DNA from: an uncultured Verrucomicrobiae bacterium
GTDB lineage: Bacteria; Verrucomicrobiota; Verrucomicrobiia; Limisphaerales; UBA11358
Assembly (NCBI GenBank): GCA_963738225.1
Contig: CAVTVR010000007.1
Span: 225,533 to 289,532 of the forward strand
Direction: 5' to 3'
DNA: 64,000 nucleotides
Made by a program: the position numbers and the translations under genes. The number at the start of each line of letters is the position of its first letter. Positions within the stretch are counted from its first letter, which is position 1. Shown here one piece after another: positions 11,101-45,578 of the stretch. The notes under the pieces were generated by a model that worked only from the letters and a program-made list of their open reading frames with translations, did not search any database and was not told the origin of the DNA.

Positions 11101-11175
11101 TGGTGCGCGGTGGAGGTTTCGAACCTCCGACCCCTACCGTGTCAAGGTAATGCTCTACCACTGAGCTAACCGCGC
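11101..11175 (-). tRNA. tRNA-Val(GAC): tRNA-Val, anticodon GAC
   Basis: The reverse complement folds by hand into a cloverleaf: GCGCGGT TA GCTC AGTGGTA GAGC A TTACC TTGACAC GGTAG GGGTC GGAGG TTCGAAA CCTCC ACCGCGC A CCA. It has a 7-bp acceptor stem, a GTTCGAAA T-loop and an encoded CCA. Confidence 0.9.
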
Positions 11176-26000: not shown

Positions 26001-26142
26001 CTTTTGCCCGTATTCCCCGCCTCTTGAACAGCCTTTGTCCCACCCGTGGTGAAAAAATTCGCGCCGTTTTCAGATTTCGCTTTTCGTCTGGTTTCATTTA
26101 CAAATCCGGTTCACACTCACGGGAAATTTTTCAAGGCATAAT

Positions 26143-27159
26143 ATGGCAAAAATAAATTCAACTGTTTGGGGCATCCACGCCGGCAGAACCGGTGACGCCG
26201 ACGAACTTTTCCTGAAACACAATGTCATTGCGCTCGGCTGGCCGAAGGCGGGCGATATTTCAAAACTCGCCAACGACCGGGAGGCATTCAAGGCGCACTT
26301 GAAAAAAGTTTATCCCGACGAAAAAGAGGGATGGTATCCGGTCGCCGCAGGTCAGCTTTTCCGGTTCCTTCACGAGATCAAAGTTGGCGATTATGTTACG
26401 TATCCGTCCAAACAAGACCGCACGGTTCACATCGGCGAAATTACCGGCGCGTTCCAGTATGACCCGAAAACCCAGCCGGGTTATCCGCAGCAGCGGTCCG
26501 TCAAATGGTTGAAAGCCATCCCGCGCACACAATTTACCCAGGGCGCGCTTTACGAAATCGGTTCTGCCTTGAGCTTCTTTCAGGTCAAAAATTTCACCGA
26601 TGAATTTCTCGCCGTCCTCACTGGCGAACCGATTGCGCCCACGCTGGCCAAGCAGGATGAATCCATTTCCTACGTCGCGGAGGAAATCGCGCAAAATACC
26701 CGCGATTTTATTCTCAAAACTCTCGCGCAGGAGATCAAGGGGCACGCCTTCTCGCATTTCATCGCCCACCTGATGGGAACCATGAGCTACCGTTGCCGGG
26801 TGTCGCCGGAGGGCCCGGATGGCGGCGTGGACATCATCGCCCACAAGGACGAACTCGGATTTGAACCGCCGATCATCAAGGTGCAGGTCAAAAGCACCGA
26901 GGGCAGCATCGGCGAGCCGGTGGTTTCACAGCTAAACGGCAAAGTGGACCGGACGGAATTCGGCATGGTCGTCACGCTCGGCACGTTCACAAATCAGGCC
27001 GTCACGTTCGCCCGGAACAAAAGCAACTTGCGCCTCATTGATGGCGACGAGTTGGTTTCGCTCATCCTCCAGCACTACGAACAATTTGATTCGCGTTACA
27101 AGGCGCTGCTCCCGTTGAAGCGGGTTTATGTGCCGGAGCCGCTGGACGAAGCGGAATGA
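26143..27159 (+). CDS. mrr: Mrr-like (Mrr_cat, PD-(D/E)xK) restriction endonuclease with an uncharacterised ~150-aa N-terminal domain
   Basis: The C-terminal half GPDGGVDIIAHKDELGFEPPIIKVQVKSTEGSIGEPVVSQLNGKV...VVTLGTFTNQAVTFA...LRLIDGDELVSLILQH matches the Mrr catalytic-domain pattern (D...D-x-VQVK). Confidence 0.8.
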   Translation: MAKINSTVWGIHAGRTGDADELFLKHNVIALGWPKAGDISKLANDREAFKAHLKKVYPDEKEGWYPVAAGQLFRFLHEIKVGDYVTYPSKQDRTVHIGEITGAFQYDPKTQPGYPQQRSVKWLKAIPRTQFTQGALYEIGSALSFFQVKNFTDEFLAVLTGEPIAPTLAKQDESISYVAEEIAQNTRDFILKTLAQEIKGHAFSHFIAHLMGTMSYRCRVSPEGPDGGVDIIAHKDELGFEPPIIKVQVKSTEGSIGEPVVSQLNGKVDRTEFGMVVTLGTFTNQAVTFARNKSNLRLIDGDELVSLILQHYEQFDSRYKALLPLKRVYVPEPLDEAE

Positions 27160-27192: not shown

Positions 27193-28035
27193 ATGAAACT
27201 GATGCAACTGATTAAATTAGTTCTGGATGACGCTTACGCAGGAATTAAAGCTAACAGTGAAGCCGAAAAGGATGAGCTGATAAAAATAGAGCTTGGGGCT
27301 TTGACTACATGTTACGGAAACCTTTCTAACAAGGCTATCAAGCCAATTGACTACAGCAACCCGTTAAAACGGTTTGCTTATATTTATAAATACACCGTCG
27401 CTCACGCGGATTACATCATGCAATTGATAAGCGGAGAAAAACAATTGCGCGATATGCTGAAAGGCAAAAGTGTTGAAGTTGCCTGCCTTGGCGGAGGGCC
27501 GGGCAGCGACCTTCTTGGCATTTTGAAATACATGATGAATGCGGGCATCAAAGACACAAAGTTGACCTGCTACATTTTTGACAAAGAACGCGCCTGGGGG
27601 GATTCATGGAGTGATGTAGCAATTCAGTTGACCCCGGACTTTCAACTGAATCCAGTATTCCAACAGTTGGACGTGACGGAACCAAATACATGGAAAAGCT
27701 ACCAAAAGTTTCTGCGGGCTGATTTGTTCACATTGAGCTTTTTCCTTTCGGAAGTTTGGAAAATCAAAAACGAAGCTCAACCGTTTTTCGATTATTGCCT
27801 TTCTCAAATGAAGCCGGGTGCAATGATTCTTTTTGTAGATAACAATTCACCAATATTCTACGAGTGGTTCGATACATTAGCCAAAAAACACAATCTGAAA
27901 CCCGTGTATGTAGTTAGCAAAGATTTGGTGTTTTCAAATAACGAAGAAAAAACCGATTTGGGAAAATATCTGAAAAAATTCGGTTGGCCCAAGCGCAAAA
28001 GCGACGCTGCCATCCGCATCATGAAAAAAGCCTGA
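27193..28035 (+). CDS. SAM-dependent methyltransferase-like protein (Rossmann motif I only)
   Basis: VEVACLGGGPGSDLLGILKY is a GxGxG-type SAM-binding motif. The gene is visibly AT-richer than its neighbours. Its stop lies 3 nt before the next gene's start. Confidence 0.55.
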   Translation: MKLMQLIKLVLDDAYAGIKANSEAEKDELIKIELGALTTCYGNLSNKAIKPIDYSNPLKRFAYIYKYTVAHADYIMQLISGEKQLRDMLKGKSVEVACLGGGPGSDLLGILKYMMNAGIKDTKLTCYIFDKERAWGDSWSDVAIQLTPDFQLNPVFQQLDVTEPNTWKSYQKFLRADLFTLSFFLSEVWKIKNEAQPFFDYCLSQMKPGAMILFVDNNSPIFYEWFDTLAKKHNLKPVYVVSKDLVFSNNEEKTDLGKYLKKFGWPKRKSDAAIRIMKKA

Positions 28036-28038
28036 CGC

Positions 28039-28992
28039 ATGATCATCTCTGCCAGCTACAAAACCGACATCCCCACTTTCTACGGCGAGTGGTTTATGAA
28101 TCGGTTGCGCGCCGGCTATTGCAAGATGGTCAATCCCTACAACCGGCGCGTAATCCGCGTGCCGTTGAACCGCGAGGCAGTGGACGGCATCGTATTCTGG
28201 ACGAAAAACGTCGGCCCGTTTGTGCATCATCTGGCCGAGGTCAAGGATCGCGGCTATCCGTTCGTCGTGCAGCACACCATCAATGGCTATCCGCGCGAGT
28301 TGGAACACGCCGTTGTCAATGCTGGCCGTGCCGTGGAAAATTTCCGCCGCGTTGCCGACCAGTTTGGCCCGCAGGTTTGCGTGTGGCGTTATGACACGAT
28401 CATTAATTCATCGCTCACGCCCCGCGAGTTCCATGTCGAGTCGTTTGCGCGGCTGGCGAAATCGTTGGCGGGTGCCACCGATGAAGTGGTGATTTCATTC
28501 GCGCATCTTTACCGGAAAACGCTGCGCAACATGGAGCGCGCGGCGGAGGATCAAAAATTCACCTGGTCAGACCCGCCGGACGATTGGAAACGCGCGCTCA
28601 CTGCCGAGTTGTCATCCATCGCCGCAGCCAATCAAATCCGACTCACGGTTTGCAGCCAGCCGCAATTCGTCGTGCCCGGTTGCGGCGAGGCGCGTTGCGT
28701 GGATGCCATCCGGTTCAACAACATCACCGGCAAACCGCTTCAATCCTGTTTGAAGGGCAACCGCAAGGAGTGCGGCTGCTATGAATCACGCGACATCGGC
28801 GAGTATGACACTTGCCCGCATGGGTGCGTCTATTGTTACGCCGTGCAGAACCATGACCTAGCCAAGTCGCGTTTCCAACAGCACGACCCGCAGGGCGAAT
28901 CACTTTTCCCGCTGCCGGCGGATGCGGTTGACGTGCCGCTGGACGTTAATCAGCTTGGACTTTTTGAAATTCACGGCGGCAAACGCCCGTAA
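28039..28992 (+). CDS. DUF1848-family protein (Cys-rich, Fe-S / radical-SAM-related)
   Basis: N-terminus MIISASYKTDIPTFYGEWFMNRL and the C-terminal cluster ECGCYESRDIGEYDTCPHGCVYCYA, as I recall for Pfam DUF1848. Confidence 0.8.
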   Translation: MIISASYKTDIPTFYGEWFMNRLRAGYCKMVNPYNRRVIRVPLNREAVDGIVFWTKNVGPFVHHLAEVKDRGYPFVVQHTINGYPRELEHAVVNAGRAVENFRRVADQFGPQVCVWRYDTIINSSLTPREFHVESFARLAKSLAGATDEVVISFAHLYRKTLRNMERAAEDQKFTWSDPPDDWKRALTAELSSIAAANQIRLTVCSQPQFVVPGCGEARCVDAIRFNNITGKPLQSCLKGNRKECGCYESRDIGEYDTCPHGCVYCYAVQNHDLAKSRFQQHDPQGESLFPLPADAVDVPLDVNQLGLFEIHGGKRP

Positions 28993-29040
28993 ATTCCATG
29001 CCCGCAAAATTTCCCCCAATACGGTGAAATACTGATAACA

Positions 29041-29731
29041 ATGCACCGACAAGTCGTCTCCAAAGAACGGGTGGCGGACCACGGCGAGGTTTATACCGCG
29101 CCGCGCGAGGTCAACGCCATGCTCGACTTGGTGAAAACGGAAACGGAGCGCATTGATTCCCGGTTCCTTGAACCCGCCTGTGGCAACGGAAATTTTCTGG
29201 CCGAGATTTTGCGCCGCAAACTTGGCATCGTCGAAAAACGCTACGCCAAGTCGCAACTGGAATACGAACGCTATGCCGTTCTCGCGGTCACTTCAATTTA
29301 CGGCATTGATATTCTGCAGGACAACGTCCAGGCCTGCCGGCAGCGGCTTTTGGGAATCTTCGATGAAAACTACCGCCGGTTGTTCAAGGACCAGACCAAG
29401 GACGGTTGCCGCCACGCCGTCCGGTTTATCCTGGAACGGAATATCATTTGGGGCGACGCGCTGACGCTCAAGACCGTTGGCGACCATGCCGGGCTACATC
29501 GTGTTTTCCGAATGGTCGCCGGTCAACGGCAACCAGCTCAAGCGGCGGGATTTCACTTTTCACGCACTGCTGCGGCATGAGGAAACGAGAGAAGCATTGC
29601 TCTTTCCTGATTTGGACAAGGAAAACGCCGAACAGATGCCGCTTTTTTCAGACCTTGGCGACGAGGTTTTTATTCCGACGCCGACAAAGGAATTTCCGCC
29701 GACGCATTTCATGGAGGTTGCTCATGCTTAA
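29041..29731 (+). pseudogene. DNA-methyltransferase-like protein with SAM motif I but no NPPY motif; one frame break near 29476
   Basis: GEVYTAPREVNAMLDLV, FLEPACGNGNFLAEIL (motif I), YGIDILQDNV and NIIWGDALT are present. After the break the sequence reads LATMPGYIVFSEWSPVNGNQLKRRDF... No (N/D)PP(Y/F) occurs in any frame of this gene. Confidence 0.65.
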
Positions 29732-31240
29732 CACCGGTAGCTACAACCCGGACATCCTGACGTGTCTCGCGAATCTCAGCAGCGACGAGGTTTTCACGCC
29801 GCCGAAAGTGGCCAACGAAATTCTGGACCGGTTGCCGCCGGAAATCTGGAAAGACAAGAACGCCCGTTTCCTGGACCCGTTTTGCAAATCCGGCGTGTTC
29901 CCGCGCGAGATTGCGCGGCGATTGATGAAGGGTTTGGAAAAGAAATTCCCGAACCAGCAGAAACGGGCGAATCACATTTTCACCAAGCAGATTTTCGCCA
30001 TCGCCAATCACGGAATTGACGGCGCACATTGCCCGCCGGTCGGCATATTGTTCCAAAACCGCCAACGGCAAGTATTCCGTGTGCGATGCGTTTGACGACA
30101 ATCAAGGCAACATCCGTTTCAAACGCATCCAGCACACTTGGGAGGATGAACGCTGCGTGTTCTGCGGAGCCGCCCAGCAGGAATATGACCGTGGCAACGA
30201 ACTGGAAACTCACGCCTACCAATTTATCCACACTGAAAATCCAGAGGAGATATTCAATATGAAATTTGACGTCATCGTCGGCAATCCACCCTACCAATTG
30301 GGCTCGGATGGCGGCACGCGCGACATTCCCATCTACAACAAATTTGTGGATCAGGCCAAGAAGATGAATCCGCGCTATCTGTCCATGATTATCCCTTCGC
30401 GCTGGATGGCCGGCGGATTGGGTTTGTCCGATTTCCGCCGTTCAATGCTGGAAGATCGCCGGATGCGAAAGTTGGTGGACTACGAGCGCATGGATCTGGT
30501 CTTTCCTGGTGTGGATTTTGAAGGAGGCATCTGCTTTTTCCTATGGGACCGCGAGAATGAAGGCCCGTGCGAAGTTACCACGGTTTGCGGTGACGAGACA
30601 ACTGGTCCAGTCGAACGCAACTTGAGCGAGCATGACGTTCTCGTCCGAGACATCCGCGCACTGAAGATACTGAAAAAGGTTTTGAGCGCAGGCGAGCCAT
30701 CCATCACCGAGATTTTGTCGGTGGATAAGGAATTCGGTTGGACATCCAACTTTGACGGCTTCCACGATAAGCAAAAAGCAAATGATGTCGCCTTGCATTA
30801 CAATCGGAAAGGCAAGCGGCTAATCGGCTATATCAACCGTAAGGAAGTTGGTAAGAGTCCGCATTTAATTGATAAATGGAAGGTGATGGTCCCGAAGGCA
30901 TACGGAGAACGAGGAATTCGTCCAGCAATGGTGCTTGGCCCAAGCTTGATCGCTGGTCCGCCGTCGGTTTGCACACAGACATACCTATTCTTCTTCGTTG
31001 AATCGAAGAAAGCGGCCACAAGTCTTACCAGCTACATGCGGACGCAGATTTTTCCGGTTTCTTGTCTCGCTACGCAAGATCACCCAGGATGCCACTCGCT
31101 CGACATACACCTGGGTGCCACAGCAGAAATGGGATCGCACTTGGACGGATGAAGCGCTCTATAAAAAATACAAGCTGTCGAAGGACGACATTGCGTTCAT
31201 AGAGTCTCGCGTTAGGCCGATGGAGGCAAAAGATGAGTAA
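29724..31240 (+). pseudogene. N6-adenine DNA methyltransferase (Eco57I-like methylase-domain family), with two frame breaks
   Basis: SDEVFTPPKVANEILDRLP, FLDPFCKSGVFPREI (degenerate motif I), FDVIVGNPPYQ (motif IV), PSRWMAGGLGLSDFR, and the tail FFRFLVSLRKITQDATRSTYTWVPQQKWDRTWTDEALYKKYKLS. Junctions are near 30006 and 31045. The start overlaps the previous stop (ATGCTTAA). Confidence 0.85.
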
Positions 31241-33762
31241 GGATTTTTTCCCGCCCCGGCCCGAACCAAGGCCCACCATCTACGCTTACGAGGATACGAA
31301 TCCGCAATATGCCGAGCTTTTGAAAGTGGGCTACACCACGGTGGACGCCCAGAGCCGCGTCGCCGCTGCAATATCCCACCTTGCGCCCCGGCAAATTGCC
31401 CTATCGCATCGTGCTCGAAGAACCGGCCATGCGGAATGACGGCTCGGTGTTCACCGACCATGACGTTCACCGGATGTTGCGGATCAATGGGGTGAAAAAT
31501 CCCGAGGGCGAATGGTTTCGCTGCTCCGTGGCCCAGGTAAAAGCCGCGATCATCGCCGTGCGCAGCGGCCAGTTGAACGAGGAAAACCGCTCGCTGGATT
31601 TCAAGATGCGGCCGGAGCAGTCAGCGGCGGTGGTCAAGACCGCAGACTATTTCAAGAGCTTCAAAAAAGAAAATTCCGGCAAGCCGCCGCATTTTCTCTG
31701 GAACGCCAAGATGCGTTTCGGCAAAACCTTCGCCGCGTATCAGCTCGCGCTGAAGATGGGCTGGCGCAAGTTGCTGGTGCTCACCTTCAAACCGGCGGTG
31801 CAAAGCGCGTGGGAGGAAGATTTGAAATGCCATGTGGATTTCAAAGGCTGGCAGTTCATCAAGCCCGGCGGCCTGACCTATGAGGAGGCGGACAAGAAAA
31901 AGCCGCTCGTGTGCTTCGGCTCGTTTCAGGATTATCTGGGCCGCAATCCCAGCACCGGCGGCATCAAGACCAAGAACGAATGGGTTCACGCGACCAATTG
32001 GGATTGCGTCATCCTGGACGAATACCATTACGGCGCCTGGCGGGCCAACGCGAAGGAGTTGTTTGAGGCGGAAGATGAAAAAGAACTGGATTTCGCCGAG
32101 AGCAAGGAAATGCGGGAATTTGATGAAGACATCATGCCCATCACCACGGGCGGTTTCCTGTATTTGTCCGGCACGCCGTTCCGCGCCATCGCCACCGGCG
32201 AGTTCATCGAAGAGCAGATTTTTAACTGGACGTATTCCGACGAGCAGCGCGCCAAGCAGGATTGGAAAGGTGAAAACAATCCCTACGCCGCGTTGCCGCG
32301 CATGGTGCTGCTGACGTATCAATTGCCGGAGGCCATCCGCGAGATTGCCTTGCAGGGCGAGTTCAACGAGTTCGATCTGAACGTCTTTTTCTCCGCCACC
32401 GGCATCGGCGACAAGGCAAAATTCGCCTACGAAGACGAAGTCCAGAAATGGCTGGATTTGATTCGCGGCGCGTTCCAGGCCACGAGTGTTGACAATCTGA
32501 AGCTCGGCGCGCAAAAACCGCCGATGCCGTTCTCGGATGCGCGGCTGTTGAATTTGCTGTCGCACACATTTTGGTTTCTGCCCAGCGTCGCCTCGTGTCA
32601 CGCCATGCGGAATCTGCTCGCGAAAAAGCAAAACGCGTTTTATCAGGATTATCGCGTCATCGTCGCCGCTGGCAGTCAGGCCGGCATCGGCGCGGACGCA
32701 CTGCCGCCGGTGTTGGAAATCATGGACGACCCCATGAAGACCAAGACCATCACCCTGTCGTGCGGAAAACTGACCACAGGCGTCACGGTCAAACCCTGGA
32801 CGGGAATCTTCATGCTGCGCAATTCGTCCAGCCCGGAAACGTATTTTCAGGCGGCGTTCCGCGTGCAGTCGCCGTGGTCCATCAAGAATCCCGACAGCAC
32901 GTCACCCAACCAGGAGCAAATCATCAAGGAAGAATGTTACGTCTTCGATTTCGCGCCCGACCGCGCCTTGCGGCAGATCGCCGAATACAGTTGCCGCCTG
33001 AATGTGGACGAATCCAACATCGAAAAGAAGGTGGAGGAATTCATCCATTTCCTGCCGGTGCTGGCCTACGACGGCAGTTCCATGAAGCAGATTGACGCCG
33101 CCGGCGTGTTGGACATGGCCACGAGCGGCACGACGGCGACGTTGCTGGCGAAGCGTTGGGAAAGCGCGTTGCTGGTGAACGTGGACAACGGCACGCTGCA
33201 ACGCCTCATGGATAACAAGGCCGCGATGGATGCCTTGATGAGCATCGAGGGTTTCCGCAATTTGAATCAGGAAATTGAAACCATCATCAATAAATCCAAC
33301 GCCGTGAAGAAGGCCCGCAAGGAGGCCAACGACCAGGAACTTTCCGCAAAAGAGAAAAAGGAACTGACCGAGCAGGAAAAGGAATACAAGCATTTGCGCA
33401 GACAGATTCAGGAAAAACTCATCAAATTTGCGACGCGGGTGCCGATTTTCATGTATCTAACGGATTATCGGGAGCGGTGTTTGAAGGACATCATCACGCA
33501 GTTGGAACCAGGGTTGTTCAAAAAAGTGACGGGACTTGCCATCAAGGATTTTGAATTGCTGGTCAGCCTCGACGTTTTCAACAGCGCCATGATGAATGAT
33601 GCCGTTTTCAAATTTAAGCGGTATGAAGATGCCAGCCTGATCTACACCGGCATCATCAAACACGACCCGAAGGACATTGGCGGCTATGATACGGTGATCA
33701 CGACGAAAGAATTTCAGGAATCATTTGTGAACCGGCCGGTAGTGAACCCTCTTAAAAACTAA
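31233..33762 (+). pseudogene. GIY-YIG/T5orf172-like N-terminal domain fused to an SF2 (DEAD/Res-type) helicase; one frame break near 31365
   Basis: N-terminus TIYAYEDTNPQYAELLKVGYTTVDAQSRV...EWFRCSVAQVKAAI. Helicase motif I AKMRFGKTFAAYQLA and motif II WDCVILDEYHYG, plus a long C-terminal region. The start overlaps the methyltransferase stop (ATGAGTAA). Confidence 0.8.
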
Positions 33763-34700
33763 TGAGCCTGACCCTCGATCTCCGCCAAAGTCGCCATCCC
33801 CAATGTCAGGTTTGCGACCGCACCGAGCGGGATGACATTGACGCTGATGGACTTTGCACCAAGACCATGTCCACGCTGGACAACCTGCCAGTGCGATGCG
33901 TCGGCGAATGGGCCTACGATAAAATTTATCGGCTCGTCCAATACTTCGGCATCTTTGCCGGCGGCATGAGCAATCGCTGGCACGGCTTGAATTACGTCGA
34001 GATTTGCAGCGGCCCCGGTCGTTGCATCACCCGTAATGACCGCACGGAAATGGATGGCACCGCGTTGGCCGTCATTCGTTCCAAGCAATTTTCCAAGTTA
34101 AAAAAAGGCATCTTCATTGATGCCAGTCCGCGTGTGGTGAACATCCTCAATCAGCGCATAAAGGCTTTGGGAAAATCTGACATTGCCGAGGCGGTGGAAG
34201 GTGATTACAGCGACGCGCCGGGATTGGCCCGCATCCTTGGACGCCTCCCGGATAGCTGTTTGAACCTCGTTTTCATTGACCCGACGGAATGCGACGTCCC
34301 GTTCACCACCATCAAACGCATTGTGGATCATCTGCAAAACGCTGACCTGCTGATCAATGTCGCCCTTGGCACGGACGTAACCCGCAACATCGTTCCCGCA
34401 ATTCTTCATTCCAGCCATAAGATCGCGCGTGAAAAATACGAAAGTTTTCTTGGATCCCCCGGTTTCTGTGCCCGGCCAGATGTGGTTGCGTTGGCGAAGT
34501 TGGCAGACCACGATGATTTAAGGCGAAAATTTGCCGAAACCTACCACCAGAAATTGCGCGGCGAAGGGTATCATTTCACCGATGTTTGCAGCGTAAAACA
34601 TTACTATTATCTGTTGTTTGCCTCGCGCAGCGCCAAAGGCTTGGAATTCTGGAAAAAAGCGTGCACATATTCGCCAGACAATCAGAAAAATTTGTTGTAA
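33762..34700 (+). CDS. tcmP: Three-Cys-motif partner protein TcmP (methyltransferase-fold-like)
   Basis: EWAYDKIYRLVQYFGIFAGGM, NYVEICSGPGRC (motif-I-like) and LVFIDPTECDVPF (motif-IV-like). It lies immediately upstream of a Gp37/Gp68 protein, which is the defining context of TIGR04474 as I recall it. Its ATG shares a base with the helicase stop (TAATG). Confidence 0.75.
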   Translation: MSLTLDLRQSRHPQCQVCDRTERDDIDADGLCTKTMSTLDNLPVRCVGEWAYDKIYRLVQYFGIFAGGMSNRWHGLNYVEICSGPGRCITRNDRTEMDGTALAVIRSKQFSKLKKGIFIDASPRVVNILNQRIKALGKSDIAEAVEGDYSDAPGLARILGRLPDSCLNLVFIDPTECDVPFTTIKRIVDHLQNADLLINVALGTDVTRNIVPAILHSSHKIAREKYESFLGSPGFCARPDVVALAKLADHDDLRRKFAETYHQKLRGEGYHFTDVCSVKHYYYLLFASRSAKGLEFWKKACTYSPDNQKNLL

Positions 34701-34712
34701 TTTTCACCGTTC

Positions 34713-35441
34713 ATGGCACTGAAATCGTCAATTGAGTGGACCGAGGCAACCTGGAACCCCGTTACCGGTTGTTCCAAAATCAGTCCCGGCTGCAAGCATT
34801 GCTACGCCGAACGCATGGCGTTTCGGTTGCAGGCGATGGGCAATCCCAATTACCGCAATGGCTTCAAAGTCACGCTTCAAGATGAAATGCTCGACTTGCC
34901 GATTCGTTGGAAAAAACCGCAGACCATTTTCGTAAACTCGATGAGCGACCTGTTTCATCGCGAAGTGCCGTTGTCGTTCATCCAAAAAATATTCACTACG
35001 ATGCACCGTGCCGACTGGCATCGGTATCAGATTCTCACCAAGCGCCCGGAACGGTTGGTCGAGCTTGATGACAAGTTGGCTTGGGCGCCGCATATCTGGC
35101 AGGGCGTCACCGTCGAGCACCCGGACTATTACGACCGGATTGATTTGCTCCGCAAATCCGGCGCGCACGTCAAATTTCTGTCCCTTGAACCGTTGCTCGC
35201 GCCCATGCCCAAGTTAAAACTGCGCGGCATTGATTGGGTGATCGTCGGCGGCGAATCTGGCCCCGGCGCGCGACCGATGGCCGAGGAATGGGTGACGGAA
35301 ATTCGCGACCAGTGCCTGAAGCAAGGCGTTGCTTTTTATTTCAAGCAATGGGGCGGTGTGTTCAAAAAGCGCAATGGCCGCGACTTGGAAGGCCGCACCT
35401 GGAATGAAATGCCAGCCGTTAGTGAACTGGCTTTCGCCTGA
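34713..35441 (+). CDS. Phage Gp37/Gp68-family protein (DUF5131), three-Cys Fe-S enzyme
   Basis: [30 protein letters not shown] carries the family's signature CxxxxxxCxxC. [25 protein letters not shown] and [15 protein letters not shown] are also present. Confidence 0.85.
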
Positions 35442-35446
35442 CCGAA

Positions 35447-36203
35447 TTAACTGTCCCCCCACCATTGCCGTTCAAACATATCCCGGTCAATCCGCACCGG
35501 CTCGATGCAGTGCGGGTCATCCGTCTTGGGGCTGTTGACCAGATTGCTGACCGGATAAATCTTGAGCGGCGAGTTTTCGGGAAAAGCCATCGCCGATTTG
35601 TGCATTTCACTGCGCAGATCGTCCGTTTTCAGCCACCAGTCATAGTGCCGCGACTGGAGGATGACCGGCATCCGGTCGTGCAGTGGCGCAATCGCCTCGT
35701 TCGCCGGCTGCGTGATGATGGTAAATGATTCAATCGTCTCGCTTGGCGGCGCTTCGTCCAGATCCGTGTCGGCGTTGTCCCGCGACGGCGGCTTAACCCA
35801 CCTGTCCCACAGGCCGGCAAAATAAAATGGCTCGCCGCTTTTGAACATCACCCGGAACGATTGCCGTTTCCCGTCGCGCTCCTGCCACTCGAAAAAACTG
35901 TCGGCCGGAATCAGGCAGCGGCGGCTTTTGAACGCCTCACGAAAAGCATTTCGGCTGGCGAGCGTTTCCGACCGCGCATTGATAAGCGCGTTGCCCATGC
36001 TTTCATCTTTCGCCCAGGATGGAATCAGACCCCAGCGCATTAGCTTCACCGCCGGCTGGTGGTGTTCGTGGTAAATCACCGGAGCGAGTCTGCGTCGGCG
36101 CGATGTTGTAGCGCGGCGAAAAAAACGGCACCCGCGCCATGACGACGCCGACCAGTTTGATCAGCTCGCTAAAATCTTTCGCCGCCGTATATCGCCCGCA
36201 CAT
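35447..36203 (-). pseudogene. SOS-response-associated peptidase (SRAP/YedK, abasic-site processing protein); one frame break near 36084
   Basis: MCGRY (catalytic Cys2), RYNIAPTQ, then after the break MRWGLIPSWAKD, NARSETL and RCLIPADSFFEWQ. Confidence 0.9.
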
Positions 36204-37626: not shown

Positions 37627-39414
37627 ATGCCAGGATATTTTATTTATTGCCGCAAATCATCTGAAGCCGAAGACCGGCAGGTTCTTTCTATTGAATCGCA
37701 AACCCGCGAACTGCAACAGTTGGCCGCAAAACTCAATCTGCCCATTGCCGAGATTTTGACTGAATCAAAATCTGCCAAAGACCCGGGCCGTCCGATATTT
37801 AATCGAATGATGCAACGGCTCTACCGGGGCGAAGCCGCCGGCATCATTTGCTGGAAACTGGATCGTCTCGCCCGCAACCCGGTGGACGGCGGTTCCATCA
37901 TCTGGGCTATCAAGCAACATGGCATCCGGGTAATGACACCCGCCCAAAGCTATGCCCGCGAGGATGACAACATCATCCTCATGTATATCGAATTCGGCAT
38001 GGCTCAAAAGTATGTTGATGACTTGAGTAAAAACGTTAAGCGCGGGATGAAAACAAAAATGGAGAACGGTTGGTTTCCGGGTAAAGCCTTGCCAGGCTAT
38101 TTGAATCACACCGACAAGTTGACAGGTGAAAACACCTTGGTTAGAGACCCGGAAAGGTTCCCATTGATCCGACGAATGTGGGATTTGATGTTGACCGGCC
38201 AATACACTCCGCCAAAAATCATTGAGATTGCAGACAAAGAATGGGGCTTGCGAACACGAACAACGCGACGAGCAGGTGGTAAACCGTTTGTCCGAAGCAC
38301 CATCTATAAGATATTCACAAAGCCGTTCTATTACGGCTGGTTTGAATTCCCCAATGGAAGCGGCCAATGGTATCAAGGAAAACATGAGCCAATGATCACG
38401 GAGGCGGAATATGACCGTGTGCAGACATTACTAGGCCGCAATGGAAATCCCCGCCCGCAATTGAATCTCGAATTTGCCTTCACTGGGATGATCTTGTGCG
38501 GAGACTGTGGACGGGCGGTGACAGCCGAGGAAAAACATCAGGCGATATGCGGCAACTGCAAATTCAAATTTGCATATCGCAAGCAGAATATTTGTCCGCG
38601 TTGTGAAACACCCATTGAAAAAATGGTGAATCCGAAGTTTCTAAAATACACCTATTACCACTGCTCAAAAAGCAAACGTCCAATGTGCTTTCAAAAATGC
38701 GTGACTGGACGGGAACTGGAAAAACAAATCAATGAGAGCCTTGCCCGCATCTGCATTTCCAAGCAATTCAAGGAATGGGCTTTCAAATTCCTGCATGAAT
38801 TGCATGAAGTAGAAAAGGCTTCATTGCATGAAATAATTCAATCACAGCAGAAGGCATATAAGGAATGTGTGCAGGAAATTGATAATCTGGTGAAGCTGAA
38901 AACCGCACCCTCTAATGCAGACGGAAGCCGCCTGTCAGACGAGGAATATGGCCGTCGGCGCGTTGAACTCCTGAAAATGAAAAAGAGCCTTGAGGAGCTG
39001 CTCAACGACGCCGGGCATCGTGTGGAACAACAGTTAAAGCTGTCTGAACAGACCTTTGAATTCGCCTGTGCCGTGCAGGAACGGTTCGCCAAGGGCGATC
39101 CAAAAACCAAAAAGGAGATTTTGATGACGATGGGATCGAACCTAATTTTGAAGGACAAAAAGCTGTTAATTGAAGCCAGAAAACCGTTCTTTATTCTCGG
39201 AAACTTGCTATCCCCTGAAACACCGATAATTTCACCAATCGAACCTGAAAAAACACAGGCGGCATATGGGCAGAAAATCCCATCTTTGTATCTTCGTCCT
39301 TGTGTGCGGGGGCAAAGAGACGATGTTCGAACCTATCTACAAAAAGCGGAGCGTGCAGCCGCACTCATATACGCTCACTTCAAAACAGAGTTTGGGGTTC
39401 CTGACAATCGGTGA
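37627..39414 (+). CDS. Large serine recombinase
   Basis: Resolvase catalytic domain YCRKSSEAEDRQVLSIESQ (catalytic Ser), DRLARN, a recombinase domain, the zinc ribbon CGDCGRAVT...CGNC...CPRCE, and a coiled-coil C-terminus. Confidence 0.95.
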   Translation: MPGYFIYCRKSSEAEDRQVLSIESQTRELQQLAAKLNLPIAEILTESKSAKDPGRPIFNRMMQRLYRGEAAGIICWKLDRLARNPVDGGSIIWAIKQHGIRVMTPAQSYAREDDNIILMYIEFGMAQKYVDDLSKNVKRGMKTKMENGWFPGKALPGYLNHTDKLTGENTLVRDPERFPLIRRMWDLMLTGQYTPPKIIEIADKEWGLRTRTTRRAGGKPFVRSTIYKIFTKPFYYGWFEFPNGSGQWYQGKHEPMITEAEYDRVQTLLGRNGNPRPQLNLEFAFTGMILCGDCGRAVTAEEKHQAICGNCKFKFAYRKQNICPRCETPIEKMVNPKFLKYTYYHCSKSKRPMCFQKCVTGRELEKQINESLARICISKQFKEWAFKFLHELHEVEKASLHEIIQSQQKAYKECVQEIDNLVKLKTAPSNADGSRLSDEEYGRRRVELLKMKKSLEELLNDAGHRVEQQLKLSEQTFEFACAVQERFAKGDPKTKKEILMTMGSNLILKDKKLLIEARKPFFILGNLLSPETPIISPIEPEKTQAAYGQKIPSLYLRPCVRGQRDDVRTYLQKAERAAALIYAHFKTEFGVPDNR

Positions 39415-39992: not shown

Positions 39993-42900
39993 TTGTTCAT
40001 GCACCGATGTTTTGCAAGCATTATGGCAATGGCGAGAACCGTTACATGGTTGCACCTGTCGGACCTGCATTCCTGCAAGACCAAAACGGGCTGGGACGCA
40101 GATCGCATACTGACAGCACTCCGGCGCGATTTGCAGTTAATGCGCGAAAAACACGATATACGTCCTGACCTGATCTTTTTCACTGGAGATGCGGCCTATG
40201 GACAAAAAACGGACGAGGGACTTTTCATTCAAGAACAGTTTGATGATGCCACTTTGTTTCTCGCCGAAATTTGCAGTATTTGCTCGGTGCCAACACAGAA
40301 CCTTTTCCTCGTTCCCGGCAACCACGACGTGAACAGAGAAACGTGTTCCATTTCCGCCGACTCTCTGCTGAAGGCTGACAATAAACCAAAGCAGGTGAAC
40401 CAGCTAATCAACGACTGCGGATCAGATTGGCGTGTGCAGATGTCGAGGCTCGCAGAGTATTGCAAGTTTTTACATAGCATCGGCAATGGCGACTTACTGA
40501 AGAATCCGGAGCGTCTGGTTTTTGCCACCAAACGCGATGTTAATGGAATCACAGTGGGCATAGCTGGACTAAACTCGGCATGGTCCTGTTTCGGTAATCA
40601 ACCAAAGGGGTCGCTTTGGCTTGGCGGCGAATGGCAAATTCAGGAATTGATGAAACAACTCCGGGACGCAGAGTTGAGGATTGGTTTGATACACCATCCG
40701 CCATCGTGGTTTGCGGAAGAGGAATCAACATTGTGGAAGCAGTTTCCGGCAAACTTTCATTTTCTCTTGCATGGCCATGAGCATGATGCTTGGGTCTCCA
40801 ATGTTGACCAGATGTGCCGTATCGCTGCCGGTGCTTGTTACGGTAAGTCACCAGCAGAGAGCGGTTATAGTTTTGTCCGCCTAGATTTGGACAAACCGTG
40901 CGCGGAGATATGGGTTCGGCGATACGGAGATAAAGTTGATAAATGGCTTCCGGAGCCTCACCGAAATTCTGGAGATGATGGAAAATCCACGCTCGAAACC
41001 TTGCCGTGGTTGCCTGTTTCCCAAATTGGAAATAGTAATGCTCAAGGCCCAGAAAGCCGGGGCATCTTTGGCAGAGCTGAAGAGATTAGAAAACTAAGAG
41101 CGCTCATTGATCGGAAGCGTGTCGTCACGGTCTTTGGATTGTCAGGCATCGGAAAAACAAAATTGATCGAGGAAGTTCGACGCGAGCAAATACAGCAGGG
41201 CTGCAGCAGCCACCAGATTATCCTCGGAGAGCGCCCGACATACGAGAGTCTTTTCCGCGAACTTGCGCCAGCGCTTGGATGCCATGATGAAGATCCAAAA
41301 GTGCCTGAAAAGTTATTCGACAAAATTGACTTTTCTGTTCTTAAGAAATTTGCAAAGCACGCACAGCCGACTCTGGTGTTCATTTCGAATGCACAGAAAA
41401 TATTTACTGCTGACGGCTTCCAATCGCTCGACGTAGCCGGCATGTTCAAGGCCATCATCGAATTTACGCCTCAAGCCCGTGTGATACTGGAGAGTCGTGA
41501 GCGGCCTCCGGATAACATTTTCCCGGCAGAGGTCTATGAAAGCTTTCGTGTTCGTGGGTTGACGATTGATGCAGTCCAAGAATACTTCCGACGCCCATTT
41601 GTTGAGCATCCAGAAATTGGTTGGCAACTGGCCCAAGCCGACGCCGAGGAAATTTGGCAGCGGCTTGGCGGAAGAGCGGGAAAAGGCGGAGACGGCGCGC
41701 ATCCGATGGGCATGTTCATTCTGGCCAGCGTCGCGAACGGTATGAATGAAACCCCAATGCACGCGCTTGAACGTCACCGCGAAACCGTATTTTACGAATT
41801 GGAGGAACAGCTGTTTAACGATCTTTATCTTCATGTTCTTGATCCGCGCGAACGACGATTGCTTCAGCTTGCATCAATGTATCGCCTGCCAATACCTCAC
41901 ACGCATATTGGCAGCTTGAACGCTGCTGTCGCCAGCCAAGATGCGTTCGATAAGCTCGTGCGGCGGTGTCTGCTTATGCCCGATGAGCAGTCGGAGCATT
42001 ACGAGGTGCACTCGCTAATTTCCGAATTGACGCTCCGGCAAATAGATTTCAAATCGGCTCAATTTCTTTCAGACCATGAAGCAATTGCCGATGCTTGGAT
42101 GAACCTATTCAAAACAGGGCGGCATGTTTCGAGACCATTTATTATTGCCGCAGCGGAAGCTGCATATCATCTAATTCAGGCCGAATGTCCTCATCGTCTT
42201 AAAGAATTGCAGACGCAGCTATTGGCGCGTCGACCAGACATTGTGGAATTTCTTGATGAATGGTCGAGGCGGTTACATGCAAATCGCAATTACGAGGACA
42301 ATTTGAGTGTGCTACAAGTCCTAGTCGCGATTGAACCCAGAAGCCACAAACACCACCGGTTTTTGGGTGAATCTATAGACCACCTTCGCGGCAAAGGCAC
42401 GGATGAGGCGTTTGAACACCACAATCAGGCTTTCCGCATAGCACCTGCGCGTCCTGAATACGCGGCAAATCTTGGAAGCGCGCTTGTTGCCTGCGGCAAA
42501 CCGCAAGCATTTCTGGATGCAATTTCAGAATTGTCCCCGGAGACACGAAGTCAGGCGATGAATGACGCTGTCGTGTCTGTCTATTGCACTTGTTTGGGCC
42601 GGTTGGGCCGGACAGATGAAGCATCGCAACTCCGCCAAGCTCGAATTCGTGACGGCTGCCGACATGCGCCCATTTTTTACGAGGAGATTATGTTCCAAGC
42701 GCACGCTGGTAATCATAAAGAATCTTTACGGCTGTTTGACATAGCTGAGAAAGTCGGCGCCATTGATGATCAATTGGAAGCAGCGAAGGCTGGAGTGCTT
42801 TCGAGAAAGGGAGACACGCAAGCTGCGACTGAACTCAGAAATCAGTTAATCAAGCGAAACATTCGAGTTGCTTCGGTTTATAACGACGAGGCATCCACAA

Positions 42901-44036
42901 TGCTGGCAAAGGGTCGGACTAGCGAGGCTCTTGCGATGGTTGAAAGAGCCAAAACCCTCGGTTGCTTGGACGACGCGACGGTTCTCATTCATGCGGGAAT
43001 CTTGCAGGCTGGCGGGCAATCTGACGAAGCCTCCAACCTGCGAAAAGAGCGATTGGCAGAGCCTGGACTACATGAACCCATCCTCTTCAACGCGGAAGCA
43101 GTATATCTGCGCAATTCAAAACGCTACGCAGATGCACTCACGCTTCTTGACCGCGCTGAAAAATTGCGATGCTCTAACTTGCATCTTTTAACGACAAAAG
43201 CGTCCGTATTGGAACTGATTGGGCGCGGTCCAGAAGCTTCGGCGATACGCCAAGCCGAGATACAACGGGGGGCACGCGATCCATTTCTCTATAATGAGGA
43301 AGCTGCCTACCTCTGCCACTGCGCTCGTCCCCAAGAAGCGTTGGACATTGTTGAACTGGCTGAAGCAAATCTCTGTGCCAATGATTTTACGCAAAGAATC
43401 AAAGCTGATATTCAGCAATCAGGCGGTGATACTGAACAAGCGAGCAGAATGCGTCGTGAACTGATCCAGCAAGGCACGGCGAATCCCGCTGTCTATGCGG
43501 ATGAAGCGATGGCGCTGGCCAGGAGGAAGGAATTCACAGAGGCATTCCAAATTCTACAACTTGCTGCAAAAACCGGAGCCGCGGATGACTACACTCTTAT
43601 CGCTAAAGCTACGATTCTCGATATGGCAGGGATGATGGAGGATGCTTCAAGGTTCCGACGGAAAGTTATTGATGCCGGAAGACGGAATGTCGTTTTCTAC
43701 AACGACGAGGCGGTCAACTTGCGCGATACGGGAGATCTCAATGGTGCCATTGTGCTTTTGAATAAGGCGGAACAGTTGGGCATTAGTAACGAATACAGCG
43801 CCACGATTCGAGCTAATATCCTATCGCGAATGGGTCATGCGGATGCGGCTTCCAAAATTCGTTCTGAATGGATCGCAAAGGGTTCACATCATGCGGCCTT
43901 TTATCACATGGAAGCAATCCACCTCAACGAAACGGGCCATTCAGTAGATGGTTTGGCTCTTTTGGACAAAGCAGTCAAAATGGGAATTGCAAATCGATAC
44001 ACCGAAACAATTCGACGCAAGCTGAAAGGTTCCTAG
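39993..44036 (+). CDS. Calcineurin-like metallophosphoesterase + STAND (NB-ARC-like) P-loop NTPase + long TPR array, 1347 aa
   Basis: Phosphoesterase motifs WLHLSDLH, FFTGDAAYG, LVPGNHDVN, IGLIHHPPSWF and LLHGHEHDAW. Walker A is VVTVFGLSGIGKTKLIEEV. The C-terminal ~650 aa contain about nine ~68-70-aa tandem units (..Y N/A DEA..L......EAL..L..AE.LG......I.A.IL...G...EAS..R.E.I..G). The true start may be the MAMARTV at about 40023. Confidence 0.85.
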   Translation: MFMHRCFASIMAMARTVTWLHLSDLHSCKTKTGWDADRILTALRRDLQLMREKHDIRPDLIFFTGDAAYGQKTDEGLFIQEQFDDATLFLAEICSICSVPTQNLFLVPGNHDVNRETCSISADSLLKADNKPKQVNQLINDCGSDWRVQMSRLAEYCKFLHSIGNGDLLKNPERLVFATKRDVNGITVGIAGLNSAWSCFGNQPKGSLWLGGEWQIQELMKQLRDAELRIGLIHHPPSWFAEEESTLWKQFPANFHFLLHGHEHDAWVSNVDQMCRIAAGACYGKSPAESGYSFVRLDLDKPCAEIWVRRYGDKVDKWLPEPHRNSGDDGKSTLETLPWLPVSQIGNSNAQGPESRGIFGRAEEIRKLRALIDRKRVVTVFGLSGIGKTKLIEEVRREQIQQGCSSHQIILGERPTYESLFRELAPALGCHDEDPKVPEKLFDKIDFSVLKKFAKHAQPTLVFISNAQKIFTADGFQSLDVAGMFKAIIEFTPQARVILESRERPPDNIFPAEVYESFRVRGLTIDAVQEYFRRPFVEHPEIGWQLAQADAEEIWQRLGGRAGKGGDGAHPMGMFILASVANGMNETPMHALERHRETVFYELEEQLFNDLYLHVLDPRERRLLQLASMYRLPIPHTHIGSLNAAVASQDAFDKLVRRCLLMPDEQSEHYEVHSLISELTLRQIDFKSAQFLSDHEAIADAWMNLFKTGRHVSRPFIIAAAEAAYHLIQAECPHRLKELQTQLLARRPDIVEFLDEWSRRLHANRNYEDNLSVLQVLVAIEPRSHKHHRFLGESIDHLRGKGTDEAFEHHNQAFRIAPARPEYAANLGSALVACGKPQAFLDAISELSPETRSQAMNDAVVSVYCTCLGRLGRTDEASQLRQARIRDGCRHAPIFYEEIMFQAHAGNHKESLRLFDIAEKVGAIDDQLEAAKAGVLSRKGDTQAATELRNQLIKRNIRVASVYNDEASTMLAKGRTSEALAMVERAKTLGCLDDATVLIHAGILQAGGQSDEASNLRKERLAEPGLHEPILFNAEAVYLRNSKRYADALTLLDRAEKLRCSNLHLLTTKASVLELIGRGPEASAIRQAEIQRGARDPFLYNEEAAYLCHCARPQEALDIVELAEANLCANDFTQRIKADIQQSGGDTEQASRMRRELIQQGTANPAVYADEAMALARRKEFTEAFQILQLAAKTGAADDYTLIAKATILDMAGMMEDASRFRRKVIDAGRRNVVFYNDEAVNLRDTGDLNGAIVLLNKAEQLGISNEYSATIRANILSRMGHADAASKIRSEWIAKGSHHAAFYHMEAIHLNETGHSVDGLALLDKAVKMGIANRYTETIRRKLKGS

Positions 44037-44119: not shown

Positions 44120-44330
44120 TACTGGCAACATTTTTGGTTGCCCGCTACGTTTCGGATTTTCCTGCCAATCCTTTTCCTAATCCGCCAGCGACGGCACGGT
44201 GACTTCCGCGTGTTTCGCATACGCCCGATGCACCGCCTTGGAGTTGTGCCCCAACGCCTGTTGCGCGAACCGCTCCGGGAATCCACATTTGAAATTACGG
44301 CAAAAAACACGGTTCGCGTCTTCAGCCTTT
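44120..44330 (-). pseudogene. Tyrosine-integrase 3' remnant (copy 1)
   Basis: It encodes ...CGFPERFAQQALGHNSKAVHRAYAKHAEVTVPSLAD..., the C-terminal LGH...Y segment of phage-type integrases. No upstream catalytic domain is present. Confidence 0.6.
44153..44265. repeat. 113-bp direct repeat, copy 1 (pairs with 45737-45849)
   Basis: CGGATTTTCCTGCCAATCCTTTTCC.AATCCGC.AGCGA.GGCACGGTGACTTCCGCGTGTTTCGCATACGCCCGATGCAC.GCCT..GAGTTGTG.CCCAACGCCTGTTGCG. I count about 7 mismatches between the copies by eye. Weaker similarity extends about 35 nt further left. Confidence 0.85.
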
Positions 44331-45578
44331 GTTTGATCTAGCCGAACGTAACTTTCCCACACCTTCAACCTTATCCTCGACATTCGCGCGTGGCAATGCC
44401 TCGCGACCGAGAACCGCAAGCAATCGTTTTCGGAGAAGATCCTTGAGGTGCGATATGTTTCGATAGTCGGGGACGTTGTGAACTGATAAATCAAAGTGTA
44501 GCTTTGTGCCTTCCTTTCGATACAGAATAGGTCGCTTGCCTAGCGAATGAGCATAGCCAATTTCATAATACACGTTCGGTCGCTCGCCAGTAAGATCAGC
44601 AATCAAAAACTCGGATTCTCTAATCTGCTTCAAAATTAAGTCAGTAATCCGATCTTGATGCTCCACATCGTCTGCGCGTAAAGCGTGGATTCCGAATTCT
44701 GTGCATACCTCTTTAATCGCATTGGAAATATCGTCCAGTTCCGGGTGGGCCTTGTCCATCCACATCATAATAAAGGCTGTGTTTGGCACACTGCGTATTT
44801 CCGAGGTTCCCTTTTGCATATTGTCTTTTCTAAACGGAGCCTGCCGCAGCATTTTCATGGCTTGCGAGGCGAGGTCAGCCGAAACCCTCTTAAGCTGTCC
44901 ATGTAATTGAGCATAGTCTTGGACATGTCGTGTGCGGTTCAGCACATCGCGAGGCGAAACACACATTGACCGGACAATATTGAGTGGAGCGTCCCCTTCC
45001 AACTCAAATCCCAGGGCAGTCGCAAAGCGACTTGCCATCGCGGCAAACTCCCCTTCGGAATATGGTGCCATCTCCTCAATTATCTCGAAACTAGACATGA
45101 AGGCAGTAGGGATTCGCTCTGTGCGCGTTGCCGTCGCGATGACTGTAAACCGTGGGAGATTAAGTGTAACTATTCGAGCTTTAGGCCCTCTGTCAATGGT
45201 GATGCTCACCTTAAAATCCTTCATCGCTTGAGCGAGGAACTCCGCTAGGCTCTTGTCGAGCATATGAACGTCTTCAATCAGAAGAAAATCACCCTCTTCA
45301 AACGAGGTGAGCACCCCAAGAAAATCACCCATGTCTTCTGACGCCAGGCCGTTCGTTTGCAGAACTCTGGCTTTCATGTGTTGCGATACAATCTTAGCCA
45401 AAGTGGACTTGCCCGAGTCAGGCTGCCCAACAAGAAGTATGTGGCCCAATGTTTCGCCTCTGCGCTGGGCACCCTTGATAGCGACTTCGAGCCGAGCCTT
45501 GAGCCTTTCCTGGCCAATAAAGTCTTCCAGCGTCTGCGGGACAGTTTTTTCCGATTCAGATAATTTTGTATCGTTCAT
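44322..45578 (-). CDS. RuvB-like AAA+ ATPase fused to a C-terminal nucleoside 2-deoxyribosyltransferase/TIR-like (flavodoxin-fold) domain
   Basis: RuvB-like N-terminal region: [66 protein letters not shown] and [17 protein letters not shown]-terminal region: TAFIMMWMD...[30 protein letters not shown]. Confidence 0.8.

Follow-up and report, generated by a model that had tools for sequence, protein, structure and literature searches.

A mobile TcmP-DUF5131 gene pair at the end of a frameshifted restriction operon: a candidate S-adenosylmethionine-dependent enzyme acting on DNA

When a pair of genes is joined through a single shared base to the end of a restriction-modification (R-M) operon, does it serve the restriction enzyme or act on its own? 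The question is raised by tcmP and an adjacent DUF5131 (Gp37/Gp68) gene in the 64,000-nucleotide stretch of DNA analysed here (the window), which comes from an uncultured Verrucomicrobiae bacterium (contig CAVTVR010000007.1, positions 225,533 to 289,532). The original prediction for this stretch held that the pair shares a translational unit with a restriction-type motor. Its linkage to defence was already catalogued. The couple of TIGR04474 and PF07505 is defined computationally and is held in PADLOC-DB as the candidate systems PDC-M41 and PDC-M30, and the window locus belongs to this catalogued, uncharacterised kind. Comparison across genomes indicates that the two genes form a widespread, mobile, two-protein cassette. 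The reading that we favour, with middling confidence, is that the pair is a self-contained, horizontally mobile, two-protein enzyme dependent on S-adenosylmethionine (SAM) that acts on DNA, either modifying it or processing a modification.

Both genes pass the thresholds of their family models, which bears out the names given to them at the outset. TcmP scores 91.1 bits against TIGR04474 (cutoff 53), with residues 49-301 covered, and DUF5131 scores 328.7 bits against PF07505 (cutoff 28.9) over profile positions 1-243 of 243. As adjacent genes they also match both component models of PDC-M41. The match of TcmP to PDC-M41A is weak (1e-7), while DUF5131 matches PDC-M41B at 1.5e-118 and the corresponding PDC-M30B at 3.9e-115. 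Literature searches on DUF5131, TcmP, PDC-M41/M30, Gp37/Gp68 and Rv2578c returned no functional study, in keeping with the earlier description of the couple as one with no assigned function. The survey of P. aeruginosa that concerns PDC-M30 is correlative only.

The TAATG junction is present as described. The TAA of the helicase gene (33760-33762) and the ATG of tcmP (33762-33764) have one base in common, and a gap of 12 nt separates the tcmP stop from the DUF5131 start. Homologues of TcmP align over 100% of the open reading frame (ORF) and begin at the identical start, which argues that this ATG is the real one. In the closest relative, metagenome contig L003, the overlap takes the form ATGA. 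Two more distant operons, in L022 and L023, replace the stop/start overlap with a 28-nt spacer, and there a purine-rich GGGAAG stretch just 5' of the tcmP start could provide tcmP with a candidate ribosome-binding site of its own.

TcmP is predicted to be built like a methyltransferase. Its AlphaFold2 (AF2) model, with a predicted local distance difference test (pLDDT) score of 90, adopts the class I SAM-methyltransferase fold. The best Foldseek matches of this model in the PDB are small-molecule class I methyltransferases bound to SAM or S-adenosylhomocysteine (E ~1e-7); a profile search of the PDB by sequence gave no match for TcmP or DUF5131. The motifs VEICSGPGRC and LVFIDP, which had been recognised earlier as methyltransferase-like, lie at residues 79-88 and 169-174. 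Residues E80, G84-P85-G86-R87, D120 and D173-P174-T175 are invariant in 47 aligned homologues. Among 95 representatives, which extend to ~26% identity, the essentially invariant positions are D40, W50, K54, G84-P85-G86, D/E120, D148, D173, D195 and R208. Binding of SAM is predicted from the class I fold together with invariant motifs I-IV. The window protein also has an N-terminal CxxC...C...C module (C15, C18, C32 and C46), found in about two-thirds of the 95 representatives. This extra four-Cys module lies outside the TIGR04474 core and distinguishes the window subfamily from the pair as catalogued.

DUF5131 appears, from profile comparisons, to be a homologue of canonical radical SAM enzymes with equivalent cluster Cys positions. 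Its three-Cys motif, noted in the original prediction, reads C20-SKISPG-C27-KH-C30 (CX6CX2C), and all three Cys are invariant across 49 DUF5131 sequences. Some TcmP proteins have canonical CX3CX2C radical SAM partners in place of DUF5131. Alignment of DUF5131 with these by hhalign extends over 147 columns (probability 94%, E 1.1e-7), and the two Cys motifs superpose apart from a 3-residue insertion. The window protein scores 73 bits, below the cutoff, against TIGR04471 (rSAM_mob_pairA, 'radical SAM mobile pair protein A'). It has no match at E <= 0.01 to the Pfam family SPL (spore photoproduct lyase; PF20903), and no Radical_SAM match either. Both SFLD and RadicalSAM.org enter DUF5131 as a radical SAM subgroup, and the latter assigns it to Megacluster-5-2, beside SPL in 5-3 (PMC9477430). 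The AF2 model of DUF5131 has a pLDDT of 74 overall and contains a confident, barrel-like (beta/alpha) core at residues 60-210. Its best radical SAM matches in Foldseek are SPL and LipA (lipoyl synthase). The family is large (>8000 clusters were scored), has members in 181 cultured-phage records and on 418 plasmids, and is listed in PHROGs as phrog_2045, 'unknown function'. To our knowledge, DUF5131 is among the radical SAM subgroups that have no known reaction.

The partnership between TcmP and a radical SAM protein is found well beyond the window. Scanning one genome per species yielded 66 tcmP loci, 63 of them non-redundant, in Verrucomicrobiota, Bacteroidota, Spirochaetota, Desulfobacterota, Chloroflexota and other phyla. 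A DUF5131 gene directly follows tcmP on the same strand in 34 loci. Nineteen of the 22 other ORFs downstream of TcmP encode canonical CX3CX2C Radical_SAM proteins of the PA0069 / Rv2578c / radical SAM mobile pair protein B / SPL type. Pfam SPL matches are confined to these alternative partners and to P0326, a metagenomic protein of 634 residues that joins a TcmP domain (residues 10-299) to a Pfam SPL domain (1.9e-16). The pairing of TcmP with a radical SAM partner thus appears to be obligate and, since P0326 is a natural TcmP-SPL fusion, physical. A third conserved gene was sought near the pair by Pfam and by all-against-all clustering of the survey neighbours, and none emerged.

Representatives of the pair also reside on mobile elements of cultured bacteria. 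Annotated pairs are found on plasmids of S. meliloti, P. aeruginosa and Hymenobacter, in either gene order and beside integrases or defence-type genes. The S. meliloti TcmP (SMa2243) has been assigned with hna to a putative transcriptional unit and shares its up-regulation (PMC12445080). A tblastn search of cultured phages and plasmids with the window TcmP gave no match. The gp43 protein of Gordonia phage Angelique bears the annotation 'methyltransferase' and is recognised as TcmP only by a broader hidden Markov model (E 4e-22). Its gene shares 4 bp with the immunity repressor gene gp44 and converges on the DUF5131 gene gp42 (L075 3992-7271), which places the pair in a lysogeny-expressed region beside the integrase.

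What, then, is the relation of the pair to the restriction operon that it follows? The operon runs in the order MmeI_Mtase-like gene, Eco57I methylase, T5orf172-ResIII helicase, TcmP, DUF5131. The window block 28038-35439 is 88% identical in DNA to L003, in which the orthologues of the R-M genes are intact (a small MmeI_Mtase-like protein of 233 aa, an Eco57I methylase of 504 aa and a T5orf172-ResIII helicase of 843 aa) and consecutive genes overlap by 8, 8 and 4 nt. Only four coding indels separate the window from L003. All are single-base insertions in the window (29488, 30006, 31046 and 31367), and they hit all three R-M genes, the Eco57I methylase twice. Neither the methylase nor the nuclease-helicase retains an intact reading frame in the window sequence. 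Free of frameshifts are DUF1848, the 2.4-kb helicase body, TcmP and DUF5131.

These insertions change how the upstream gene is to be read. The original prediction saw a GIY-YIG-like helicase there. A helicase is indeed present: the ORF at 31381-33762 scores 21.1 bits against ResIII, just below the Pfam cutoff, and 8e-31 against the PADLOC model REase_MTase_IIG. Its orthologues carry an N-terminal T5orf172/MUG113 domain (Pfam on L022), which we take to be a member of the GIY-YIG clan. However, the ORF that had been seen is a 5'-truncated remnant. The true helicase start is the ATG at 31233, and the T5orf172 domain is split by the insertion at 31367. In the methylase, the middle fragment matches Pfam Eco57I at 2.3e-32. 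Ribosomes that set out from the helicase ATG would be expected to end near 31439, ~2.3 kb before TcmP. Because the helicase and both methylase-like genes are frameshifted, the proposed translational unit with the motor is functionally disrupted in the given sequence and is kept, as an overlap, only in L003. Any activity of the pair here would be independent of the motor, since all three R-M genes are affected. The lack of a conserved third gene and the intactness of the pair beside broken R-M genes together suggest that the TcmP-DUF5131 cassette is autonomous.

The four insertions may represent real pseudogenisation or assembly error. They lie outside long homopolymers. In contigs from four unrelated peat or soil runs the extra base is absent at 29488, 30006 and 31367, and the stretch around 31046 is skipped; these related contigs show that relatives are intact. 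Among the sequencing runs searched for the window's own sample, none contained more than 17% of the sampled words.

In other genomes, restriction and defence enzymes recur just before the pair. The two ORFs preceding TcmP (-1/-2) supply a set of 117 proteins, in which Pfam detects Eco57I (6), N6_Mtase (5), N6_N4_Mtase (2) and EcoRI_methylase (1), as well as Type_ISP_C, ResIII, GmrSD_N and T5orf172 (2 each). PADLOC adds mad2-like and type I/II/IIG methylase models among the upstream proteins. The amino-methyltransferase motif [NDS]PP[YFW] is present in 9/117 proteins at these positions, compared with 7/786 elsewhere within 12 ORFs (Fisher p = 4e-5). Similarly, ORFs of at least 700 aa account for 24/215 at -1 to -4 and for 23/688 elsewhere (p = 3e-5). 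A restriction or defence enzyme of one of seven kinds lies directly upstream on the same strand in at least 10 of the 63 loci, with gaps of 0-130 nt. Large upstream genes of this sort that were inspected encode a ResIII restriction helicase, AIPR, type ISP, DUF499, two type IIG enzymes and the T5orf172 helicase; two of the large upstream genes inspected encode metabolic enzymes. Type III and GmrSD genes are also seen preceding the pair.

The T5orf172-helicase/Eco57I/TcmP/DUF5131 operon is found in four genomes, down to 50-54% TcmP identity, and its proteins in L022 are 74%, 54%, 54% and 66% identical to those in L003. Further close relatives of the pair are located in a DUF1156/DUF499/GmrSD/NERD island, after an AbiEii gene and after a DEAD helicase. 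In L086 (6485-9545; TcmP 77% identical) the pair begins 20 nt 3' of ftsZ, the last gene of a ddl-ftsQ-ftsA-ftsZ cluster, a context outside defence. Downstream of the pair no gene recurs in the survey; single instances of Fic, RhuM, type I R-M, DarT/NADAR and KAP genes are present together with housekeeping genes. The association with restriction-type operons therefore appears, from gene order, to be strong, facultative and polar (upstream, not downstream). A neighbourhood survey had been suggested as a check on the original prediction; its outcome is that R-M enzymes are enriched directly upstream of TcmP, but that linkage to a motor is facultative.

We infer an Fe-S cluster, radical chemistry, a DNA substrate and a biological role for the pair along the following lines. 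C20, C27 and C30 of DUF5131 would hold a [4Fe-4S] cluster, at which SAM would be cleaved to a 5'-deoxyadenosyl radical. This radical would abstract a hydrogen from a flipped-out nucleotide. TcmP would bind DUF5131 and contribute either a second SAM-dependent step or target recognition. DNA would thereby gain a non-canonical mark, or have such a mark processed. The pair would travel with ordinary R-M modules on mobile elements and in defence islands, often at the 3' end of an operon. In the window it would form the final cargo of an island bordering on the 3' end of a gene for an SRAP protein, joined by the stop/start overlap to an R-M operon. DNA as the substrate is suggested by the SPL / PA0069 / Rv2578c clade to which the alternative partners of TcmP belong, by the basic character of both proteins (predicted isoelectric points of 8.4 and 9.2) and by weak winged helix-turn-helix (wHTH) matches in long TcmPs.

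Several observations weigh against an enzyme of this description. The nearest solved folds to TcmP are small-molecule methyltransferases and include no DNA methyltransferases. Motif IV of TcmP is DP(T)(E/G) rather than (D/N)PP(Y/F), so that TcmP may not act on exocyclic amines and may perform no methylation whatever. The wHTH matches of long TcmPs fall under the threshold. In DUF5131 the CX6CX2C spacing departs from the canonical CX3CX2C, the Cys loop is modelled at low confidence (pLDDT <50), and Foldseek links the model only weakly to structures of radical SAM enzymes (E 8e-3 to 4e-2). Many loci have no R-M neighbour, and ftsZ or metabolic genes precede some pairs. The survey itself relied on a crude ORF caller and on one TcmP subfamily as its only bait, and the literature searched contains no biochemical or genetic test of any member of the family.

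A more specific form of the DNA-acting reading is tentative, and we would lean against it. Here the pair would install a covalent DNA mark of a kind not described before, made by radical SAM chemistry. The cassette, attachable 3' of nearly any R-M operon, would in this way supply a second, portable label of 'self' or, on phages and plasmids, a label that counters restriction. Such a label would explain the survival of the pair after decay of the companion R-M genes.

The same survival can be turned to another end. The pair might be selfish or neutral cargo at shared integration hot spots, its link to R-M genes functionally meaningless and the TAATG overlap incidental, which we consider unlikely. 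The SRAP gene bears on this view. Its stop codon is 5 nt from that of DUF5131, and its 3' end (35445-35556) recurs as fragments of 32-112 nt that flank or follow the pair in relatives: three copies in L085 (7963-8044, 8883-8914 and 11696-12445) and others in L013 (11688-11798), L009 (13518-13591) and L003 (14231-14285). The recurrence of these fragments beside the pair suggests that these islands use the 3' end of SRAP as an attachment site, or as an integration junction or hot spot. Cassettes also seem to be swapped within a fixed frame. At L004 7556-9912, an EcoRI-type methylase and a GmrSD_N/HNH nuclease replace the Eco57I/T5orf172-helicase module of window 29041-33762, and the flanks on the DUF1848 and TcmP sides keep 80-82% DNA identity. 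An att-like junction, a replaceable R-M cassette between DUF1848 and TcmP, heterogeneous contexts that include ftsZ and metabolic neighbours, and an intact pair beside a dead R-M operon would all suit a hitch-hiker. It is harder to reconcile with repeated same-strand placement, at gaps of 0-130 nt, after restriction or defence enzymes of seven kinds, with an enrichment that is polar, with a five-gene operon kept to ~50% TcmP identity, or with two independent candidate-system entries in PADLOC.

Distinctly unlikely, in our judgement, is a viperin-like route in which the substrate is a small molecule and not DNA. DUF5131 would carry out the radical step on a free nucleotide and TcmP would methylate what results, yielding a nucleotide analogue with an antiviral or signalling function, as prokaryotic viperins do. 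Small-molecule radical SAM enzymes are established or proposed defence effectors, for example Ophion (bioRxiv 10.1101/2025.09.30.679545), and such a role would accord with the top structural matches of TcmP and with the listing of the pair as a PADLOC defence candidate. However, DUF5131 and the alternative partners are akin to the SPL-like, DNA-acting clade and not to viperins. Both proteins are basic, the genes that recur upstream encode DNA methylases and nucleases, and no nucleotide kinase or other recurrent third gene is found nearby.

We give little credence to a role in DNA repair or damage tolerance, wherein the pair would reverse lesions in the manner of a mobile SPL, including damage inflicted by neighbouring nucleases, instead of marking DNA. 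Of the characterised relatives, spore photoproduct lyases stand closest. A gene for SRAP, an abasic-site crosslinking peptidase, adjoins the pair in the window and L085, and in L004 and phage phi1026b an SRAP gene lies no more than a few kb from a DUF5131 gene or from the pair; genes for IMS/Y-family polymerases and DnaE-type proteins occur near some loci. Yet the adjacency of SRAP is better explained as an integration junction with repeated 32-112-nt fragments, immunity or counter-immunity better suits a pair that is spread over plasmids, the ends of R-M operons and the immunity regions of prophages, and SPL needs no partner with a SAM-methyltransferase fold. A role in phage morphogenesis or the phage core is rejected, since only 5 IMG/VR loci carry this TcmP subfamily; the defence island, the upstream R-M enrichment and the PHROGs label all side with the original preference for DNA transactions or immunity over morphogenesis.

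Several known systems can be set beside the locus. With the catalogued TcmP pair (TIGR04474 + PF07505; PDC-M41/M30) the window locus shares the family models passed, adjacency, the CX6CX2C motif and a defence-island context; it differs in being joined to the end of a frameshifted T5orf172-helicase/Eco57I R-M operon. The SPL or 'DNA repair photolyase' clade (PA0069, Rv2578c, mobile pair protein B) furnishes the alternative partners of TcmP elsewhere, one of them fused. DUF5131 aligns with this clade, cluster Cys included, and its barrel-like model core may, on weak Foldseek matches, correspond to the partial (beta/alpha)6 TIM barrel of these enzymes. In contrast to SPL, DUF5131 has CX6CX2C in place of CX3CX2C, is ~100 residues shorter and would need a methyltransferase-fold partner.

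The upstream genes resemble a split type IIG or type ISP-like R-M enzyme (REase_MTase_IIG, PDLC03626). The helicase and methylase ORFs match the N- and C-terminal parts of one 1359-position profile, and orthologues of the window genes have a T5orf172 nuclease-type domain. The window enzyme differs in that it is divided among separate genes, in reverse order, all with +1 insertions. We know of no split type IIG or type ISP-like system that needs a radical SAM accessory. PrrC in the EcoprrI locus resembles the pair in that it brings to a restriction operon a second activity unrelated to the first, lying within the operon or added to its end. In contrast to PrrC, the pair lacks any recognisable domain of a toxin or nuclease, and it also occurs alone.

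Table 1. Positions of the TcmP-DUF5131 pair, the preceding operon and other island genes in the window
Feature	Position	Strand	Evidence or remark
Mrr-like (Mrr_cat) restriction endonuclease, first island gene	26143-27159		PADLOC PDC-S02, 2e-139
Methyltransf_34-like Rossmann protein	27193..28035	+	Pfam 27.5 bits; system membership uncertain
DUF1848 protein, C-terminal CPHGCVYC (CX3CX2C)	28039..28992	+	PF08902 294 bits; PADLOC RTasDUF1848
Small MmeI_Mtase-like gene (233 aa when intact)	29041..29731	+	+1 insertion at 29488
Eco57I-type N6-adenine DNA methyltransferase gene	29724..31240	+	+1 insertions at 30006, 31046; Pfam Eco57I
T5orf172 (GIY-YIG-like) + ResIII helicase gene	31233..33762	+	+1 insertion at 31367; three-frame reading, L003 alignment
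TAATG overlap, helicase stop/tcmP start	33760..33764	+	Read from sequence
tcmP (three-Cys-motif partner protein, 312 aa)	33762..34700	+	TIGR04474, AF2/Foldseek, conserved motifs
DUF5131 (Gp37/Gp68), 242 aa	34713..35441	+	PF07505, PDC-M41B/PDC-M30B, CX6CX2C motif
SRAP (YedK-like) gene	35447..36079	-	PF02586 193 bits; convergent with DUF5131
Large serine recombinase	37627-39414		1.5 kb past SRAP
1347-aa calcineurin-like phosphoesterase (metallophosphatase)-nSTAND6-TPR protein	39993-44036		PADLOC PDC-S60
RuvB-like AAA protein	44322-45578	-	Weak nucleoside 2-deoxyribosyltransferase match
Gabija-like pair: UvrD-like helicase + OLD-family ATPase/TOPRIM	46101-48735	-	

The gene content of window 26-49 kb (Table 1) marks this region as a defence island. 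DUF1848 forms the conserved left edge of the block that is common to relatives, and is 95% identical to the L003 copy and 85% identical to the L004 copy. Its Methyltransf_34-like partner keeps the same gene order in L003 and L004 at just 23% and 42% identity, respectively. The two constitute a second couple of a Rossmann-methyltransferase-like protein and a Cys-motif protein (window 27193-28992; L003 3371-5235; L004 5735-7515). DUF1848 is also known to pair with methylase-fused UG25 reverse transcriptases (PMC9226505). Homology of this couple to the TcmP pair finds no support, the likeness being one of analogy: hhalign gives the Methyltransf_34-like protein and TcmP a probability of 1.3%, and the likeness of DUF1848 to the radical SAM partners is confined to a 20-residue Cys motif.

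At the left of the island, a 54-nt intergenic stretch before the first island gene (26012-26065) is 80% identical to L004 4037-4090, and the genes that follow differ. This stretch may be a promoter or a left junction. A scan for promoters and terminators gave results not above shuffled background. No tRNA was found at the island borders, the window's sole tRNA being located at 11101.

What is new in this locus and its relatives is that the radical SAM partner of TcmP is interchangeable, that a natural TcmP-SPL fusion exists, that the pair attaches in a polar manner to many kinds of R-M system, and that its companion operon in the window is broken. The survey of the pair narrows the search for DUF5131 chemistry to DNA. 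It also offers concrete operons, of which that in L003 is intact, and culturable sources exist in Gordonia phage Angelique and in plasmids of P. aeruginosa and S. meliloti. Should the pair install a new DNA modification, it would represent a new enzymatic route in bacterial and phage epigenetics, and unassigned signals in methylomes from single-molecule real-time (SMRT) or nanopore sequencing could be explained.

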